From sequence record PQ416618.1: a stretch of 64,000 nucleotides of DNA; one strand, given 5' to 3'. This document shows, piece after piece, positions 1,705-31,806 of this stretch. This DNA is from Escherichia phage vB_VIPECOMC06. The notes beneath the pieces were generated by a model. It had not been told where the DNA came from and did no database searches. It saw nothing but the letters and a program-made list of their open reading frames with translations. Within the stretch, counting starts at the first letter, position 1. The number at the start of each line of letters is the position of its first letter. A program made the position numbers and the translations under genes.

Positions 1705-3918
1705 ATGATTATTGAAACGGCTAAAGAAACGATTATTGGTTCAGGTGGTAAGAGCACAGCATTTACTATTCAAGGCAATAGCAAAGTTTATAAGATTTTG
1801 TCTAATGACCTTTATACAAACAAAGAATTGGCTTGTGTACGTGAATTAATCACAAACTGTATCGATGGTCAAATTCTTAATGGTTGCACTGATAAGTTTA
1901 TTGTTCAGGCTCCAGGTCGTTTAGACCCACGTTTTGTAGTTCGAGACTTTGGTCCTGGTATGAGTGATTTCACCATTCGAGGTAATGACGAAGAGCCAGG
2001 AATCTATAACTCATATTTTGCTTCAACTAAAACATCGAGTAACGATTTCATTGGTGGATTCGGACTCGGCTCTAAAGCTCCACTAGCATATACCGATACG
2101 TTTAACCTTACGTCTTATCACAATGGTGAAGTTCGTGGTTATGTAATTTATCAAGATGACACAGGTCCACAGATTAAGCCAACCTTCGTAGATAAGATGG
2201 GTCCTGATGATCGGACCGGCGTTGAAGTAGTTGTGCCTGTTAACCCAGAAGATTTTGAAAAGTTCGCATCTGAAATTGCATATGTTATGCGTCCTCTCGG
2301 TGATATTGCAGAAGTTCGTGGTGTTAAAGATATCAAATACTTCCCGGAATTCGATGATGTTTATTTAGCCAAGGAAGCTCCATGGGGTGAACGTGGTAAT
2401 ATCATGGCTGTTTATGGTGGTATTGTATATCCAATCGGAAGTGTTATTAAAGAACAAACATGGATGATGACGCGATGCACTACAGCTTATATTAAATTCC
2501 CTATGGGTGAACTAGATGTAGCCCCGTCTCGTGAAGCATTGTCATTTGATAAACGTACAGTAGCAAATATCCATAAACGCGTTGCAGAAATCGATGCTAA
2601 ATTGTTCGCTGAAGATTCTAAGAAATGGATTGATTGTAAATACCCACGTCATGTGTTCCGTGAAATTGATTCTCTTGGCTATACCGCTCGCAAATACATG
2701 GAAAAGGCTGGGTCTAATATTGAATCACTGAAATACTCTAAAGAACAACTAACTTATTCCGAGTTGTACAAACGTTTTAAAATGGGACCTGAGTGGTGTA
2801 ATCTTGGCGTCGTATACGATATCGTTGAATCCCCTCGTCTTCGTCGTATTCGTGAAAGCGGTAGCTCAACGGCAACCATTTCAATTAACAGTCTGATTGG
2901 CATTAACATTAAAAATGTTGAAATTGTTATTGACGACGTTAAGGGACGCGTTCCATTAATGCGAGCTCTTAATTCAATTGAAATGTCTAAAGACGAGGTT
3001 AAATTAACCGGTAAAGTTCCACGCGGTTTTGGTAAAAGCGTACTATTCGTTGACCCTACAGACGAAGATGCAATGAAACTTCTGGAACGCCTTAAAGTTA
3101 TCTTTGATGGCGACAACATTAACATGTACAAGACTTCAGAGCTTTTACAAATCGTTAAGCCATGGATTGAAGTCAAGAAACGGACTAATGAGCCTCGTCC
3201 TAAATCCCCGAGTGCTCATCGATTCTTTAAGAATGAAAACGATGTTTGGGTATCAGAAGACCTCTTTATTCCGGCAAGTGAAGCAGATGAAATCCAAGGT
3301 TATGCTATAGTTCGTAATCGTTCTAATGCTGAATGTCTTGACGCAGATAAAGGTTGGTTGAACTATGACTCCAATTTCTTGACTCGTATTGCTGATTTGT
3401 CAGGTATTAAAGAGTTCACTGTAGTCCGTCCACAGATTGCTAAGAAAGTTCGTAAACTTGGTGAAGTAGAATGCTTGTTCGAAAAATCAATTAATGACTA
3501 TATTACGCTAATTGATAAAGTGGATTATGATGAGTATGTATCACCAAGTCGTAGAGCACAGCCTTATTTGAATCATATTACTCGTAATGAAGAGCTTAAC
3601 TTCCTTAGTAAATATTTTAGCTCTAAGAACAAAGAAATCAGTAAAGATTTTGCAAAACTTTCAACAGTAAATAATCGTTGGGGTTGGAATCGATTCTCAG
3701 GTGCTACTAACAGAGATCTGAATAAGAAGTTAGAATTGTGTGCTAAAATTTTCGATAAGCTTAAAGATAATGCTTACGATAATGATGATAAAATGGTTAT
3801 TGAATTTGAAACCAATTATCATATTGTGTCAGAATACATGGGACGACGTGGTACTCTTTCTAAAGAACAGGTCGCTCAAATCGTTAAATTCATGAAGGCC
3901 GTGGAAGCGGCCAAATAA
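1705..3918 (+). CDS. rIIA: rIIA membrane-associated protein (rapid lysis / lysis inhibition; GHKL ATPase-like N-terminus)
   Basis: 737 aa; N-terminus MIIETAKETIIGSGGKSTAF...RELITNCIDGQ matches the T4 rIIA pattern. Confidence 0.9.
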   Translation: MIIETAKETIIGSGGKSTAFTIQGNSKVYKILSNDLYTNKELACVRELITNCIDGQILNGCTDKFIVQAPGRLDPRFVVRDFGPGMSDFTIRGNDEEPGIYNSYFASTKTSSNDFIGGFGLGSKAPLAYTDTFNLTSYHNGEVRGYVIYQDDTGPQIKPTFVDKMGPDDRTGVEVVVPVNPEDFEKFASEIAYVMRPLGDIAEVRGVKDIKYFPEFDDVYLAKEAPWGERGNIMAVYGGIVYPIGSVIKEQTWMMTRCTTAYIKFPMGELDVAPSREALSFDKRTVANIHKRVAEIDAKLFAEDSKKWIDCKYPRHVFREIDSLGYTARKYMEKAGSNIESLKYSKEQLTYSELYKRFKMGPEWCNLGVVYDIVESPRLRRIRESGSSTATISINSLIGINIKNVEIVIDDVKGRVPLMRALNSIEMSKDEVKLTGKVPRGFGKSVLFVDPTDEDAMKLLERLKVIFDGDNINMYKTSELLQIVKPWIEVKKRTNEPRPKSPSAHRFFKNENDVWVSEDLFIPASEADEIQGYAIVRNRSNAECLDADKGWLNYDSNFLTRIADLSGIKEFTVVRPQIAKKVRKLGEVECLFEKSINDYITLIDKVDYDEYVSPSRRAQPYLNHITRNEELNFLSKYFSSKNKEISKDFAKLSTVNNRWGWNRFSGATNRDLNKKLELCAKIFDKLKDNAYDNDDKMVIEFETNYHIVSEYMGRRGTLSKEQVAQIVKFMKAVEAAK

Positions 3919-21865: not shown

Positions 21866-22783
21866 ATGGATTTAGAAATGATGTTGGATGAAGATTACAA
21901 AGAAGGTATTGCACTTGCCGACTTTAGTAACATTGCATTGGCAGCTGCATTAAACAACTTTGAAGACGGCGATAAAATTACTGTTCCGATGGTTCGCCAT
22001 GTAATCTTGAATTCAATTCGTAAAAACGTAGTGATGTTCCGTAAGCAAGGCTATACAAAATTTGTATTGTGTATGGATAATGCTACTTCAGGTTATTGGC
22101 GTCGTGACTTTGCTTACTATTACAAGAAAAATCGTAAAACCGATCGTGAAGCTTCAAAGTGGGATTGGGAAGGATATTTTACTGCACTCCGTCAAGTTGT
22201 TGATGAGATTAAGAAATACATGCCATACGTTGTAATGGATATTGACAAGTATGAAGCGGATGACCATATCGGTGTATTAACTAAATATTTGTCATTAGCT
22301 GGACATAAGGTATGTATTGTTGCATCAGATGGTGACTTTACACAATTACACAAATATCCTAACGTTAAACAGTGGTCGCCACCACAGAAAAAATGGGTTA
22401 AAATTAAGAACGGTTCTGCTGAAATTGATTGCATGACTAAAATTCTTAAAGGTGACCGTAAAGACGGCGTTGCATCTGTTCGAGTTCGTGGCGACTTCTG
22501 GTTTACCAGAGTTGATGGTGAACGAACTCCGAGCATGAAAACAACGATTATTGAAGCAATTGCCAATGACCGTTCTCAAGCTGAAGTATTATTAAGTGCG
22601 GAAGAATATAAACGGTATCAAGAAAATTTGGTTCTCATTGATTTTGATTATATCCCTGATAATATTGCTTCAACCATTATAGAGTATTATAACTCATATA
22701 AACCACAACCTAAAGGCAAGATTTATTCATACTTTGTAAAATCTGGTCTTTCTAAATTAACAAGTGTAATTAATGAATTCTGA
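21866..22783 (+). CDS. rnh: RNase H (5'-3' exonuclease / flap endonuclease)
   Basis: 305 aa; MDLEMMLDEDYKEGI...DIDKYEADDHI...SDGDFTQLHKYPNVKQWSP matches T4 RNase H. Confidence 0.95.
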   Translation: MDLEMMLDEDYKEGIALADFSNIALAAALNNFEDGDKITVPMVRHVILNSIRKNVVMFRKQGYTKFVLCMDNATSGYWRRDFAYYYKKNRKTDREASKWDWEGYFTALRQVVDEIKKYMPYVVMDIDKYEADDHIGVLTKYLSLAGHKVCIVASDGDFTQLHKYPNVKQWSPPQKKWVKIKNGSAEIDCMTKILKGDRKDGVASVRVRGDFWFTRVDGERTPSMKTTIIEAIANDRSQAEVLLSAEEYKRYQENLVLIDFDYIPDNIASTIIEYYNSYKPQPKGKIYSYFVKSGLSKLTSVINEF

Positions 22784-22790
22784 GGTAAAC

Positions 22791-23060
22791 ATGGCTAAGA
22801 AAGAAGCAGTTGAATTTAATCAAGATGTGCATGGTGAAGAACTGGCTAAACTAGTCAAGGAAGCTTCCGATAACAAACTTAAAATTTCTGGTTATAATGA
22901 ACTGATTAAAGACATTCGTACTCGTGCTAAAGAAGAGCTTGGCGTCGATGGAAAAATGTTTAATCGTTTGTTAGCTCTTTATCATAAAGATGCTCGTGAT
23001 CAATTTGAAGCTGAAAACGAAGAGGTAGTCGAGCTTTATGACACAGTTTTCACTAAGTGA
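22791..23060 (+). CDS. dsbA: dsDNA-binding late transcription enhancer DsbA
   Basis: ATG at 22791 (GAGGTAAAC SD) gives MAKKEAVEF...ISGYNELIKDIR.RAK.ELGVDGKMFNRLLALYHKD, matching T4 DsbA. Confidence 0.88.
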   Translation: MAKKEAVEFNQDVHGEELAKLVKEASDNKLKISGYNELIKDIRTRAKEELGVDGKMFNRLLALYHKDARDQFEAENEEVVELYDTVFTK

Positions 23061-23376
23061 TATTAAACCGGTTGATGAGGCCGGTTTATCTGAACAAGAA
23101 TTAGCGGTAAAACACGATAAAGATGATATCGCTAAATTGCTTGACCGACAAGAAAACGGATTCATTATCGAATCCATGGTTGAACAATTTGGTATGTCTT
23201 ATTTAGAAGCAACAACTGCTTTCTTGGAAGAAAATTCTATTCCAGAAACACAATTTGCTAAATTTATTCCTACAGGAATTGTTGAAAAAATTACAAGCGA
23301 AGCAATTGATGAAAACATGCTTCGCCCATCAGTTGCTCGTGGTGAAAAAACTAATACGTTAGATTTCTTATTATGA
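23038..23376 (+). CDS. 33: late transcription co-activator gp33
   Basis: 112 aa; MTQFSL.DI.PVDE.GLSE.EL...LLDRQENGFIIE.MVE.FGMSYLEATTAFLEENSIPETQFAKFIP matches T4 gp33. Confidence 0.93.
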   Translation: MTQFSLSDIKPVDEAGLSEQELAVKHDKDDIAKLLDRQENGFIIESMVEQFGMSYLEATTAFLEENSIPETQFAKFIPTGIVEKITSEAIDENMLRPSVARGEKTNTLDFLL

Positions 23377-24056
23377 AATACGTTGTGTATAAAACTACCA
23401 ATAAAATAAATGGTAAAATTTATATAGGCGTACACAAAAAACATAAAGAGAAAGATTGGTATATTGGGTCTGGCCGCGCTATATTAGCGGCCAAAGCTAA
23501 ATACGGACTAAAAAATTTTTATACTGAAGTTCTTTATGAATATGATAATGACAAGGACGCCTATAAAAAAGAAGCAGAATTGGTTAATGAAGATTTTGTT
23601 TTGCGAACTGATACTTATAACCTGGTTCCAGGTGGTAAAGGTGGCCCTGGTAAAAAACAAAGTGATGAAGCTAAAAGGGCTATTTCACTTTCTAAAATAG
23701 GGAAACCTAGATCTGAAGAGACTAAGGCTAAAGTATCTAAAACCAGATTAGAAAGAAAAATACCATCACCTAATAAGGGTAAGAAACTATCTGAAGCTCA
23801 TAAATTAGCTTTGAGTAAAGTCCGAAAAGGGCGAAAAACGAATAAGCCGATGCCTGATTCAACCAAAGAAGCTCTTAGAATAGCAAATTCAAAGCCGCAT
23901 TCTAAAGAAAGAACTATTAAAAAACAAAAACCTATAATTATTGATGGTATAAAATACTCATCATGTACAGAAGTTTCGGATGTTTTTAATATTTCTGCAT
24001 CTCTAGTTACGTATAGACTTAAATCTTCAAAATGGCCTGGATGGAACTATGATTAA
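23373..24056 (+). CDS. GIY-YIG family homing-endonuclease-like protein (Seg-like), free-standing
   Basis: 227 aa; N-terminal YKTTNKINGKIYIGV (YIG element) plus a Lys/Arg-rich C-terminal DNA-binding-like region; ATGA overlap with gp33 stop. Confidence 0.65.
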   Translation: MKYVVYKTTNKINGKIYIGVHKKHKEKDWYIGSGRAILAAKAKYGLKNFYTEVLYEYDNDKDAYKKEAELVNEDFVLRTDTYNLVPGGKGGPGKKQSDEAKRAISLSKIGKPRSEETKAKVSKTRLERKIPSPNKGKKLSEAHKLALSKVRKGRKTNKPMPDSTKEALRIANSKPHSKERTIKKQKPIIIDGIKYSSCTEVSDVFNISASLVTYRLKSSKWPGWNYD

Positions 24057-24702
24057 AATACGCATGCCTCCTGACGGAGAACGTTATATTAATGGTAAAT
24101 CAGTATATAAACTATACTTGATGTGCAAAAACCACTTTGGTGGTCGGTATGACGTAATCAAATATAACTGGTGCATGCGTGTTTCGGATAATGCGTATCA
24201 AAAACGCCGAGATAAATATTTCTTTGAAAAACTAGCAGAGAAATATAAATTGAAGGAACTCACCTTGATATTTATAAGCAACTTAGTTGCTAACCAAGAC
24301 GCATGGATTGGTGAGATATCAGACGCTGATGCATTAGTTTTCTATAGGGAATATATTGGACGTCTCAAACAAGCCAAGGAGACGTTTGCTGAAGATGTAC
24401 GTAACATCTACTATTTCAGTAAGAAAGTGGAAGTTAGTGCGCTTCAAGAGATATTTGATTATAATAACAACGTTCAGTCGAGCTACATATTCAAATTGCT
24501 ACAAAGCAATATAATTTCATTTGAGACTTTCTTATTGTTGGACTCATTTTTGAATATTATAGATAAGCACGACGAACTTACTGACAATTTGGTCTGGCAA
24601 AATTATTCTACCAAATTAAAGGCATATCGAAAAATACTTCAAATCGATGGAAATGCTGCTAAGAAATTGTTCATAGAAACAATCAAATCATGTAGGTATT
24701 AA
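24049..24702 (+). CDS. 59: gp59 helicase loader
   Basis: 217 aa; MIK.RMP..GERYI.GKSVYKLYLM.K.H..G.YDVIKYNWCMRVSD.AYQKRRDKYFF matches T4 gp59. Confidence 0.93.
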   Translation: MIKIRMPPDGERYINGKSVYKLYLMCKNHFGGRYDVIKYNWCMRVSDNAYQKRRDKYFFEKLAEKYKLKELTLIFISNLVANQDAWIGEISDADALVFYREYIGRLKQAKETFAEDVRNIYYFSKKVEVSALQEIFDYNNNVQSSYIFKLLQSNIISFETFLLLDSFLNIIDKHDELTDNLVWQNYSTKLKAYRKILQIDGNAAKKLFIETIKSCRY

Positions 24703-24731
24703 GCTTTATTTCTTGTGTGTTAAAATTACTT

Positions 24732-24739
24732 TATAAATA
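24732..24739 (+). promoter_or_regulatory. late promoter upstream of gene 32
   Basis: TATAAATA on + strand in the gene 59-32 intergenic region. Confidence 0.5.
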
Positions 24740-24749
24740 AATCATACCA

Positions 24750-24819
24750 GCTACGAGGTATAAGTGTCGTAGCAACCAACTGTAAATAAATTAAATAATC
24801 TAAATAAAGGTAATAATCC
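24750..24819 (+). promoter_or_regulatory. gene 32 translational operator (structured element plus unstructured A/U-rich gp32 binding region)
   Basis: Hairpin AGCTACGaggtataagtgtCGTAGC followed by repeated (U)AAAUAA units up to the ATG (taaataaattaaataatctaaataaagg). Confidence 0.6.
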
Positions 24820-25719
24820 ATGTTTAAACGTAAATCTACTGCTGACCTCGCTGCTCAAATGGCTAAACTGAATGGTAACAAAGGTTTCTCTTCAGAAGAT
24901 AAAGGCGAATGGAAGCTGAAACTCGATGCATCTGGTAATGGTCAAGCGGTAATTCGTTTCTTGCCAGCAAAAACTGATGATGCACTACCATTTGCAATTC
25001 TTGTTAACCACGGTTTCAAGAAAAACGGTAAATGGTATATTGAAAATTGCTCTTCTACACATGGTGATTATGACTCTTGTCCTGTATGTCAGTACATTAG
25101 TAAAAATGACCTGTACAATACTAACAAAACTGAATATTCTCAACTGAAACGTAAAACTTCTTATTGGGCTAATATTCTGGTTGTTAAAGACCCTCAAGCT
25201 CCAGATAACGAAGGTAAAGTATTTAAATATCGTTTCGGTAAAAAGATTTGGGACAAAATTAATGCAATGATTGCAGTTGATACTGAAATGGGTGAAACTC
25301 CAGTTGATGTTACTTGCCCGTTTGAAGGTGCTAACTTCGTTCTTAAAGCTAAGCAGGTTTCTGGTTTTAGCAACTATGACGAATCTAAATTCTTGGGTCA
25401 ATCTGAAATTCCTCGTATTAATGACGAAGCATTCCAGAAAGAACTATATGACCAGATGGTAGACCTTACTACTTTGACGGCTAAAGACCAGTTCAAATCC
25501 TTTGAAAAATTAAATGAATCTTTCGCTAAGGTTCTTGGTACTGCCGCTCTTGGTGGTGCAGCAGCCGCAGCAGCTTCTGTTGCTGATAAAGTTGCTTCTG
25601 ACCTTGACGATTTTGATAAAGACATGGAAGCCTTTAGTTCTGCAAAAACTGAAGATGACTTCATGAGTTCCTCGTCTTCTGACGATGGCGACCTCGATGA
25701 CCTGTTAGCTGGTCTATAA
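24820..25719 (+). CDS. 32: gp32 single-stranded DNA-binding protein
   Basis: 299 aa; [35 protein letters not shown]...[17 protein letters not shown] matches T4 gp32. Confidence 0.96.
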
Positions 25720-26280: not shown

Positions 26281-27976
<1,696 letters not shown>

Positions 27977-30575: not shown

Positions 30576-30627
30576 GTCTTTTGATTATAATTTACTCATG
30601 GATGAGTTAAACTAAGTGAGAAATATA

Positions 30628-31806
30628 ATGAGTACAGTTTTTAACACACAACAAGTCGATGTTTTGAATGAGCCGATGTTCTTTGGTTCTGGTCTTGGTA
30701 TTGCGCGTTATGATATTCAACGCCATAAAGTTTTTGAAGATTTGACCGAAAAACAATTGTCATTTTTCTGGCGCCCCGAAGAGGTAAACTTGATGTTGGA
30801 CTCTGCGCAGTTCAATAAGCTTCCTCAGTTCCAACAGGACATCTTTACAAACAACCTTAAGTATCAATCATTATTAGATTCTATCCAAGGCAGAGCCCCA
30901 TCTGCGGTACTTATGGCACTGATTTCTGACCCTTCATTAGATACATGGGTTGCAACATGGACATTCAGTGAAACTATTCACTCTCGTTCGTATACTCATA
31001 TTATGCGAAATCTTTATACAGACCCATCTAAGGTATTTGATGAAATTGTATTAGACGAAGCAATCATGAAACGAGCTGAATCAATAGGTAAATATTACGA
31101 TGATGTTCTAGTTAAAACACGTGAATGGGAAAATGCTAAAGAAATTTTTAAATGTTTTTCCGAAAATGAATATGATTTGGATGCATATTCAAATAGTCTT
31201 ATGCATGTGGAAGAATGTAAACGTGCATTAATGAAGTCTCTTTATCTCTGCTTACACGTTATTAACGCCTTAGAAGCTATTCGTTTTTATGTATCTTTTG
31301 CATGTACTTTCAACTTCCATAAGAACATGGAAATCATGGAAGGTAATGCAAAGATTATGAAGTTCATCGCTCGTGACGAACAACTCCACCTTAAAGGCAC
31401 TCAGTACATTATCCGTCAACTTCAATCTGGTACTGATGGTGATGAGTGGGTTCAAATTGCTAAAGAATGTGAACAAGACGCAGTTGACATTTTTATGGAA
31501 GTAAATAGACAAGAGAAGGAATGGGCTGCACACCTCTTTAAAGACGGTACATGCCCGGGTATCAATACGCAGAGTATGTGTGCTTTTGTTGATTACTTGA
31601 CTGTGTCTCGTATGAAACAGTGCGGTTTGCCATGCCCAATAACTGATGCTCCGACCAAGCATCCGTATCCTTGGATTCGTGAATATCTGAACTCTGATTT
31701 AGTTCAATCAGCTCCTCAGGAAGTTGAAATCAGTTCTTATCTTGTCGCACAAATTGATAATGATGTAGACCAAAATGTAATCAATTCATACAAAAAATAT
31801 TTCTAA
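30628..31806 (+). CDS. nrdB: aerobic ribonucleotide reductase small subunit (uninterrupted, no intron)
   Basis: ATG at 30628 (MSTVFNTQQVDVLNEPMFFG...); continuous 392-aa ORF with R2 di-iron ligand helices. Confidence 0.93.
   Translation: MSTVFNTQQVDVLNEPMFFGSGLGIARYDIQRHKVFEDLTEKQLSFFWRPEEVNLMLDSAQFNKLPQFQQDIFTNNLKYQSLLDSIQGRAPSAVLMALISDPSLDTWVATWTFSETIHSRSYTHIMRNLYTDPSKVFDEIVLDEAIMKRAESIGKYYDDVLVKTREWENAKEIFKCFSENEYDLDAYSNSLMHVEECKRALMKSLYLCLHVINALEAIRFYVSFACTFNFHKNMEIMEGNAKIMKFIARDEQLHLKGTQYIIRQLQSGTDGDEWVQIAKECEQDAVDIFMEVNRQEKEWAAHLFKDGTCPGINTQSMCAFVDYLTVSRMKQCGLPCPITDAPTKHPYPWIREYLNSDLVQSAPQEVEISSYLVAQIDNDVDQNVINSYKKYF

Follow-up and report, generated by a model that had tools for sequence, protein, structure and literature searches.

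A putative Seg-type homing endonuclease lineage at the junction of genes 33 and 59 in T4-like phages

Introduction

The mechanism of the free-standing GIY-YIG endonucleases of phage T4, the Seg proteins, has been described in a review of T4 mobile elements (PMC2988022) and in a study of SegB (PMC2330249). Six of the T4 Seg proteins are listed as active enzymes (PMC2988022). SegG, whose gene lies between 59 and 32, cleaves T2 DNA in gene 32 and provides the paradigm of marker exclusion with co-conversion (PMC2988022). SegF and SegE represent intronless homing, for which inheritance at high frequency with co-conversion is expected (PMC2988022, PMC2330249), while the activity and target of SegD are listed as not determined (PMC2988022). 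Here, we describe a 227-amino-acid (aa) open reading frame (ORF) that lies between genes 33 and 59 in a 64,000-nt stretch (the window, in what follows) of the T4-like Escherichia phage vB_VIPECOMC06 (PQ416618.1; Mosigvirus). It is very probably a functional free-standing homing endonuclease gene of the Seg type and a member of a lineage specialised for the 33/59 junction of T4-like phages; its activity and target are predicted from sequence comparisons and a structural model.

In a multiple alignment with the T4 proteins, identities to the window protein were 43% for SegD, 39% for SegC, 37% for SegA, 31% for SegB, 28% for SegE, 26% for SegF, 25% for I-TevII, 24% for I-TevI and 19% for SegG. 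SegD is thus the nearest T4 paralogue (33.5% over 242 columns, E = 2e-30 by tblastn) and resembles the window protein in length and in its layout of a GIY-YIG domain, NUMOD3 repeats and a helix-turn-helix (HTH) domain. However, segD is located between genes 23 and 24 of T4, in the orientation opposite to that of its neighbours, and orthology was rejected in view of the low identity (33–43%) and the different locus. SegG shares the neighbourhood and the character of a promoter-less, free-standing GIY-YIG cassette, but its junction is at the opposite end of gene 59. Like the window gene, the genes for SegF and SegE stand free between conserved genes, are absent from close relatives and go with a carrier allele that differs at the target. 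SegH of T6 and RB3 is also a Seg-type GIY-YIG protein, and the identity of the window protein to SegH of T6 and of phage F2 is 33–34%; the F2 match adjoins the gene for the activating protein of anaerobic ribonucleotide reductase. This candidate, too, was rejected as an orthologue because of its identity and its other locus. One GenBank record, that of Shf125875 (L100, KM407600.1), labels the 33/59 gene 'SegH; similar to RB3 segH', which reflects a loose similarity.

The best structural match in both domains is I-TevI, encoded in the td intron of T4 (PDB 1ln0, 1mk0 and 1i3j). It has the same tethered two-domain architecture, but is intron-encoded and possesses a zinc finger and an Arg27-bearing helix, both of which fall in gaps of the window protein in the alignment. 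Judged by sequence and position, none of the named Seg genes from SegA to SegH, all of which are found at other loci, is an orthologue of the 33/59 element. By analogy, it would work like the T4 Seg genes and be built like I-TevI without the zinc finger, with an endonuclease activity that is predicted.

The ORF and its flanking genes

The ORF starts with ATG, extends from 23373 to 24056 on the + strand, and has the N-terminus MKYVVYKTTNKINGKIYIGV that had been quoted earlier. Upstream lies gene 33, encoding the late-transcription coactivator (23038..23376, +; Pfam Trans_coact, 3.5e-26), and downstream gene 59, encoding the helicase loader (24049..24702, +; T4_Gp59_N, 1.9e-49, and T4_Gp59_C, 1e-43). 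The stop codon of gene 33 (TGA) and the ATG of the ORF share the tetranucleotide ATGA (23373–23376). At the other end, the 8 nt ATGATTAA (24049–24056) are common to the 3' end of the ORF and the start of gene 59, so that codons 2–3 of gene 59 supply the TAA stop codon of the ORF (24054–24056). An earlier note on this DNA had placed the ORF between the two genes, overlapping the stop of one and the start of the other, and had described 33 and 59 as adjacent in T4. The sequence and the Pfam assignments of the flanks confirmed every detail of this arrangement; in the T4 record the two genes are neighbours that overlap by a 4-nt ATGA (149193–149196) with no gene in between, and segG sits one junction further on.

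We conclude that 23373..24056 is a real gene and not a chance ORF, because the product matched PHROG 314 ('homing endonuclease') over its full length at 4.3e-55, because 642 homologues were found at E ≤ 1e-5, and because the ratio of nonsynonymous to synonymous polymorphism (pN/pS) is 0.10. The window protein is 100% identical to annotated homing endonucleases of phages SSE1 and PaulHMueller. The PaulHMueller record (L001, MZ501098.1) is filed as Tequatrovirus, and its locus is 98.5% identical to that of Mosigvirus phages.

Domains and predicted fold

An N-terminal GIY-YIG nuclease domain was assigned to aa 1–91 (23373..23645, +) by alignment, Foldseek and profile, with the residues VVY6, YIG17–19, E67 and N83. 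It is followed by a linker (aa 93–175; 23649..23897, +), rich in Lys and Arg and containing about four helical repeats similar to NUMOD3, assigned from Pfam NUMOD3 and the helices of the model, and by a C-terminal HTH DNA-binding domain of the I-TevI type (aa 183–226; 23919..24050, +). The Pfam match of this last domain to I-TevI_DNA-bd scored 42.6 bits (5.7e-11; cut-off 27), while that of aa 93–122 to NUMOD3 was barely over the cut-off (20.7 versus 20.4 bits). The HTH also matched PDB entry 1i3j both in sequence (E = 5e-4) and in fold.

Residues Y6, Y17, G19, S33, E67 (E75 of I-TevI) and N83 (N90 of I-TevI) are kept with respect to T4 SegA–SegG, I-TevI and I-TevII; in this alignment Y17 and G19 are invariant and Y6 is nearly so. 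Across 120 homologues, E67, Y82, N83, G87 and G88 are invariant, and Y6, Y17, G19, H21, D28, Y30, G32-S33-G34 and K43 nearly invariant. An AlphaFold model built from the alignment of these homologues had a mean predicted local distance difference test score (pLDDT) of 92.7 and consists of a three-stranded sheet with helices (aa 1–77), four linker helices (98–108, 115–127, 141–152 and 162–173) and a small C-terminal domain. When this model was compared with the PDB using Foldseek, I-TevI's DNA-binding domain (1i3j) ranked first and its catalytic domain second to fourth, followed by I-HmuI. The match to the catalytic domain (1mk0/1ln0) had a probability of 1.00 and a target-normalised template modelling (TM) score of 0.65–0.66 over 95 columns, and the family profile aligned to residues 4–77 of I-TevI.

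These results agree with the earlier note, which had read the N-terminus as a GIY-YIG-type module and the Lys/Arg-rich C-terminal region as a Seg-like DNA-binding tail. As to the catalytic Arg and Glu, whose absence it had named as a ground for refutation, the Glu is conserved as E67, together with the Asn at N83, whereas the Arg (Arg27 of I-TevI) could not be aligned. By sequence and modelled fold, the protein is an I-TevI-like nuclease whose catalytic activity is predicted.

Presence and absence in Mosigvirus

A 2.2-kb query around the ORF matched 186 phage records of the GenBank phage collection. It was spanned fully by 28 of them, at 95.7–98.5% identity; most of the other matches had approximately 98% identity and fell into two pieces that skip the ORF. 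With a junction query, we found 138 records in which the 33/59 junction is uninterrupted, a precise empty site like that of T4, and a query from the ORF to gene 59 gave the same count of 28 carriers, three of which are RefSeq duplicates. In tblastn, identities of at least 95% were seen only in these 28 records, the next match being 56%. The gene is thus present in about one-sixth of the Mosigvirus records and absent from about 83%.

Alignment of the empty GADS24 with the window revealed a clean insert of 676 bp with TATGA at its boundaries; the empty site is identical to the ATGA arrangement of T4. Even within one species, Mosigvirus JS09, SSE1 carries the gene and ST0 and TU01 have the empty site. 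The earlier proposal of an insertion into an intergenic site, with empty-site alleles in relatives, was therefore upheld: comparison of the 33/59 junction defined the empty site, and the gene is not found in all relatives. Together with the GIY-YIG, NUMOD3 and HTH domains, the pattern of 28 occupied versus 138 empty junctions also supports the view of the gene as a selfish homing endonuclease. Since it is missing from about 83% of the Mosigvirus records and from most relatives in two further genera, Dhakavirus and Winklervirus (see below), the gene is dispensable.

A diverged patch at the start of gene 59

Nine carriers and eight Mosigvirus sequences with an empty site were inspected directly, each flank being compared over 1500 nt. 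The nine carriers span most identity classes (AV110, 98.6%, and JK42, 94.8%, were left out); for all 28, megablast identity alone is ambiguous as to the gene 59 allele type, owing to other single-nucleotide polymorphisms. There were no differentiated positions upstream of the insert, and downstream they were confined to nt 45–92 of gene 59 (24093..24140, +), where alleles track the presence of the endonuclease gene; in the carrier–empty comparison this tract is the predicted homing-site, immunity and co-conversion tract. The key positions are 24108, 24130, 24132, 24139 and 24140. All nine carriers have T60, A82, C84, G91 and G92 (numbered in gene 59), whereas six of the eight empty alleles have C, C, A, A and A and the remaining two are of the occupied type; accordingly, the gp59 of the window has N28/G31 and that of most empty-site phages Q28/N31. 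From 9/9 versus 2/8 we calculated a one-sided hypergeometric probability of about 0.002, in which relatedness is ignored.

The same picture emerged in two other genera. Mismatches in gene 59 between the Dhakavirus carrier IME540 and the empty JS98 and QL01 numbered 3, 11, 1–2, 0–1, 0, 0 and so on per 50 nt, and those between the Winklervirus carrier CHI14 and the empty X20 and Gravdalen 11–12, 11, 0, 0, 0 and so on. All 22 gene 59 mismatches between CHI14 and Gravdalen fall in the first 100 of 650 nt, and the final 300 nt of gene 33 differ at 0–1 positions. Thus, in three genera, a dense and mostly synonymous patch was observed at nt ~15–95 of gene 59, with otherwise near-identical flanks. The four empty lineages examined, T4 among them, all have TAC as codon 23 of gene 59; in eight of nine carrier lineages this codon is TAT.

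Because the dense patch adjoins the insert in three independent carrier-versus-empty comparisons, we infer that it reflects a homing site that is diverged, self-protecting and subject to co-conversion, and it is our predicted cleavage site. A target this close to the insert would be a modest departure from the characterised free-standing enzymes of T4: these cut at least hundreds of bp away (PMC2988022), whereas the patch next to the 33/59 elements starts approximately 15–45 bp from the insert.

Homologues at the same junction in other genera

In Dhakavirus IME540, a 56% identical homologue occupies the 33/59 junction, and its overlaps with the two genes again measure 4 and 8 nt; four Dhakavirus records are carriers, and the empty site is found in over 40 close relatives, JS98 and JS10 among them. 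In Winklervirus, a 53% identical homologue is found at the junction in Serratia phages CHI14, CBH8 and LC53 and Kosakonia phage Kc304, while their relatives X20, Gravdalen, Vettismorki and Virsaitis27 have the empty site. Six homologues from metagenome assemblies (45–58% identical, BLASTP) all lie between Trans_coact and T4_Gp59 genes and start on ATGA. Since the homologues of Dhakavirus, Winklervirus and the six metagenomic contigs occupy the same junction, the elements at 33/59 are a site-faithful lineage. Searching IMG/VR with the endonuclease protein returned distant relatives only (≤36% identity). The search with gp59 returned one empty Mosigvirus locus and one occupied Winklervirus locus, and among 20 divergent T4-like contigs from IMG/VR, 19 had empty junctions, the Winklervirus one alone being occupied.

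Pairwise identities among nine versions were mostly 44–66% for the endonuclease and 72–85% for gp59. The divergence of the two proteins did not correlate among the nine clade members (Spearman 0.11, p = 0.53), over a range too narrow to separate co-divergence from transfer. The C-terminal module of the lineage is of two types, being either long, with a fourth NUMOD3-like repeat, or short. P0003 (L107, locus 3001–3696) and P0013 (L109, 3001–3600) are 100% identical over their first 150 aa and only 44% over the last 45; the tail of P0003 is 78% identical to that of IME540, and the C-terminal modules of P0003 and P0013 resemble different clade members. As the N-termini are identical and the C-terminal modules diverged, the sequences indicate an apparent recombination, or domain shuffling, between variants of the lineage at a kept insertion site.

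A segG homologue is also present between genes 59 and 32 in IME540 (L093, 3845–4462; 58% identical to T4 SegG) and in the metagenome contig L111 (4346–5011; 48%). In both, the essential gene 59 is flanked on either side by homing endonuclease genes, and this co-occurrence makes the 33/59 element distinct from segG.

Junction anatomy and expression signals

Alignments of occupied and empty alleles place the direct repeats TATGA of the 676-bp insert at 23372..23376 (left, +) and 24048..24052 (right, +), the right one containing the regenerated start codon of gene 59. Most other members of the clade have ATGATTAA or a longer sequence as the repeat. Seven of the nine endonuclease versions open with ATGATT..., repeating the first 5–13 nt of the local gene 59: the repeated start is ATGATTAA in IME540, P0003 and P0013 and ATTATGATTCGTC in P0008, where the endonuclease and gene 59 products both begin M-I-R. 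The window copy and P0004 open with ATGAAATA, and only TATGA is left repeated. From these sequences, the element appears to sit effectively just inside the original start of gene 59, so that it captures this start and the coupling to gene 33 and recreates a start at its own 3' end. Such start capture would entrench the element.

A scan for sigma-70-like promoters and terminators yielded none above shuffled expectation for the ORF, no + strand late promoter TATAAATA was present within or just upstream of it, and sequence inspection found no Shine-Dalgarno sequence for it. In the absence of a late promoter and of an above-chance sigma-70-like site, the ORF was treated as a promoter-less cassette, which fits the description given for segC, segF and segG (PMC2988022).

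Proposed mechanism

We propose the following sequence of events. The gene, which has neither a promoter nor a Shine-Dalgarno sequence of its own, would be transcribed as part of the rnh-dsbA-33-59 unit. Its translation would proceed by termination-reinitiation at the ATGA overlap, the site presumably used by gene 59 in empty-site phages. The C-terminal HTH and the NUMOD3 helices would anchor the protein on DNA, and the tethered GIY-YIG domain would then introduce a double-strand break; characterised enzymes of this superfamily cleave site-specifically and leave 2-nt 3' overhangs. To judge from the allele patterns, the target would be the first ~100 nt of gene 59 in phages without the element, while the carrier's own gene 59, diverged in the patch, would be spared. 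As is known for the family, the phage recombination machinery would mend the broken empty genome during a mixed infection, with the carrier genome as template. Repair would copy the 676-bp insert together with the adjoining gene 59 patch, resulting in intronless homing and local marker exclusion. Retention would be favoured by the arrangement of the ORF, which appears to use the original gene 59 start context, to regenerate the ATGATTAA start and to end on codons 2–3 of gene 59. With start and stop interlocked in this way, an imprecise deletion would damage the expression of the essential gene 59.

More tentatively, and with rather less than even confidence, we suggest that the 33/59 elements form a compact cassette of an endonuclease plus its diverged target, with the site within ~100 bp, spliced into the coupling of an essential gene and faithful to one junction despite swaps of the DNA-binding module.

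Alternative explanations

Several observations weigh against a functional enzyme that cuts next to its own gene. In the Pfam search, PF01541 gave no match to the window protein, and SegE_GIY-YIG (PF19835) matched aa 5–81 with 19.9 bits (E = 8.8e-4), under the curated cut-off of 25. The I-TevI segment that contains R27 ('fekrwk') is an insertion relative to the family profile, and no equivalent of Arg27 can be aligned. The association between patch and insert is uncorrected for shared ancestry. Approximately 8 of the 138 empty records reach ≥97.9% identity with the carrier-type patch, and the window copy is the exception in that its gene 59 keeps TAC as codon 23; the immunising changes thus differ among lineages. 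It should be noted that empty alleles of the 95.0–96.4% identity class were counted without individual inspection. Finally, the free-standing endonucleases characterised in T4 cleave at distances of hundreds to thousands of bp from the genes that encode them (PMC2988022) and the patch lies within ~95 bp, so the cut site could be elsewhere and the patch only a recombination seam.

Some of these points can be qualified. The Pfam GIY-YIG cut-off is a curation threshold and no biological feature, and the clade members P0003 and P0012–P0016 have recorded PF01541/PF19835 matches. The Arg27 gap is common to all seven T4 Seg proteins in the multiple alignment, and since six of them are listed as active, an alignable Arg27 is not discriminating. 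Basic candidates in the lone helix between strands 2 and 3 are R35, which is variable, and K43, which is nearly invariant; the superfamily paper (PMC1564403) does not settle the position of the catalytic Arg for Seg proteins. As for the empty phages with a carrier-type patch, G53 (L101) and mobillu (L103) have N28/G31 (locus 2174–2270), and phages of this type could represent either a precise loss of the element or the resistant background of its first settlement.

The low hidden Markov model score of the GIY-YIG domain and the missing Arg27 equivalent might also be explained if the gene were a degenerating or inactive relic that does not cut and persists only through its interlock with the 33/59 translational coupling; the roughly eight empty-site phages with an occupied-type patch are compatible with loss after fixation. 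In line with this, the copy in AV116 (L097, OR352946.1, locus 2174–2858) is truncated by a 1-nt insertion at nt 309 (GGTCCTATT versus GGTCTATT). Its ORF breaks off after ~102 codons, and all that is annotated in the record is a downstream fragment of 138 aa; the frameshift could be natural decay or a sequencing or assembly error. We nevertheless consider a relic unlikely. Among eight intact Mosigvirus copies, pN/pS is 0.10 at a pS of 0.12 and low in all three domains (nuclease 0.08, linker 0.07, HTH 0.18; gp59 0.03), and for this reason the protein is under purifying selection. In addition, the 120 homologues show little or no variation at E67, N83 and the GIY/YIG tyrosines, the Arg27 gap is shared with T4 enzymes listed as active, and carriers are a minority in three genera, as expected of an element that is still cycling.

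Purifying selection and the translational interlock with genes 33 and 59 would equally suit a domesticated gene that acts mainly as a DNA-binding regulator or otherwise benefits the phage, for example by tuning gp59 translation or as a weapon that excludes the late-transcription and replication markers of competitors, and marker exclusion can indeed favour the carrier genome (PMC2988022). This reading has little to recommend it, less than the relic, given that the gene is dispensable in all three genera and that the diverged patch adjoining the insert is predicted by homing and not needed by a regulator; competitive exclusion, being the phenotype of homing itself, is no true rival. Least credible of all is the repeated deletion of an ancestral resident gene with an unrelated mosaic recombination in gene 59: the short direct repeats flanking the ORF (TATGA, ATGATTAA) could mediate precise deletion and some empty alleles do have the occupied-type patch, but the empty junction of T4 and of 19 of the 20 divergent IMG/VR contigs is widespread and presumably ancestral, and three genera show the tight patch at nt ~15–95 of gene 59 followed by near identity, every gene 59 mismatch between CHI14 and Gravdalen lying in the first 100 of 650 nt.

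Significance

Many GenBank records already annotate the gene as a putative homing or Seg-like endonuclease, and our literature searches found no paper on the 33/59 element. A homing endonuclease gene at 33/59 would add an uncharacterised, site-faithful Seg lineage to the mobile elements of the T4 group, as a member of a well-known class; the current understanding of homing endonucleases is unchanged. It leads to a concrete prediction, namely that the enzyme spares its own allele and, in Mosigvirus phages with an empty site, cuts gene 59 in its first ~100 bp. Elements of this kind shape the survival of markers in mixed infections, which is relevant to cocktails of close Mosigvirus isolates comprising carriers and non-carriers, and they are sources of nucleases with long targets. 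The gene 59 translation interlock and the module swap are small illustrations of the entrenchment of selfish genes. If the compact cassette proposed above is real, the lineage would offer a natural series on how an endonuclease keeps its site while changing its reading of DNA. The tidy features of the system are its site fidelity across genera, the capture of a start codon, the nearby diverged patch and the module swap, and its overall interest is modest.

Other features of the window

Searching the whole window by tblastn with all T4 Seg, Mob and I-Tev proteins gave no further homologue, and an Rfam search of the same 64 kb gave no RNA family at gathering thresholds. Candidate td (27116..27976) and nrdB (30616..31806) genes, assigned by position and length only, appear uninterrupted.

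Upstream of gene 33, the ORF listing places rnh at 21866..22783 (+), followed by dsbA at 22773..23060 (+; Pfam Phage_DsbA); gene 34 lies upstream of the stretch from rnh to gene 32, on the – strand. The start of dsbA is ambiguous: a start at 22773 gives 95 aa and an overlap with the stop of rnh, and one ~18 nt downstream gives 89 aa. Annotations in related records are divided between the two forms. Gene 32 was listed at 24820..25719 (+). The spacer between genes 59 and 32 (24703–24819), which varies in length, is the most variable stretch of the 3-kb comparison, with 35 variable sites per 100 nt versus 4–13 elsewhere in gene 59. This is the junction that holds segG in T4, and in the window it contains a + strand TATAAATA at 24732–24739.

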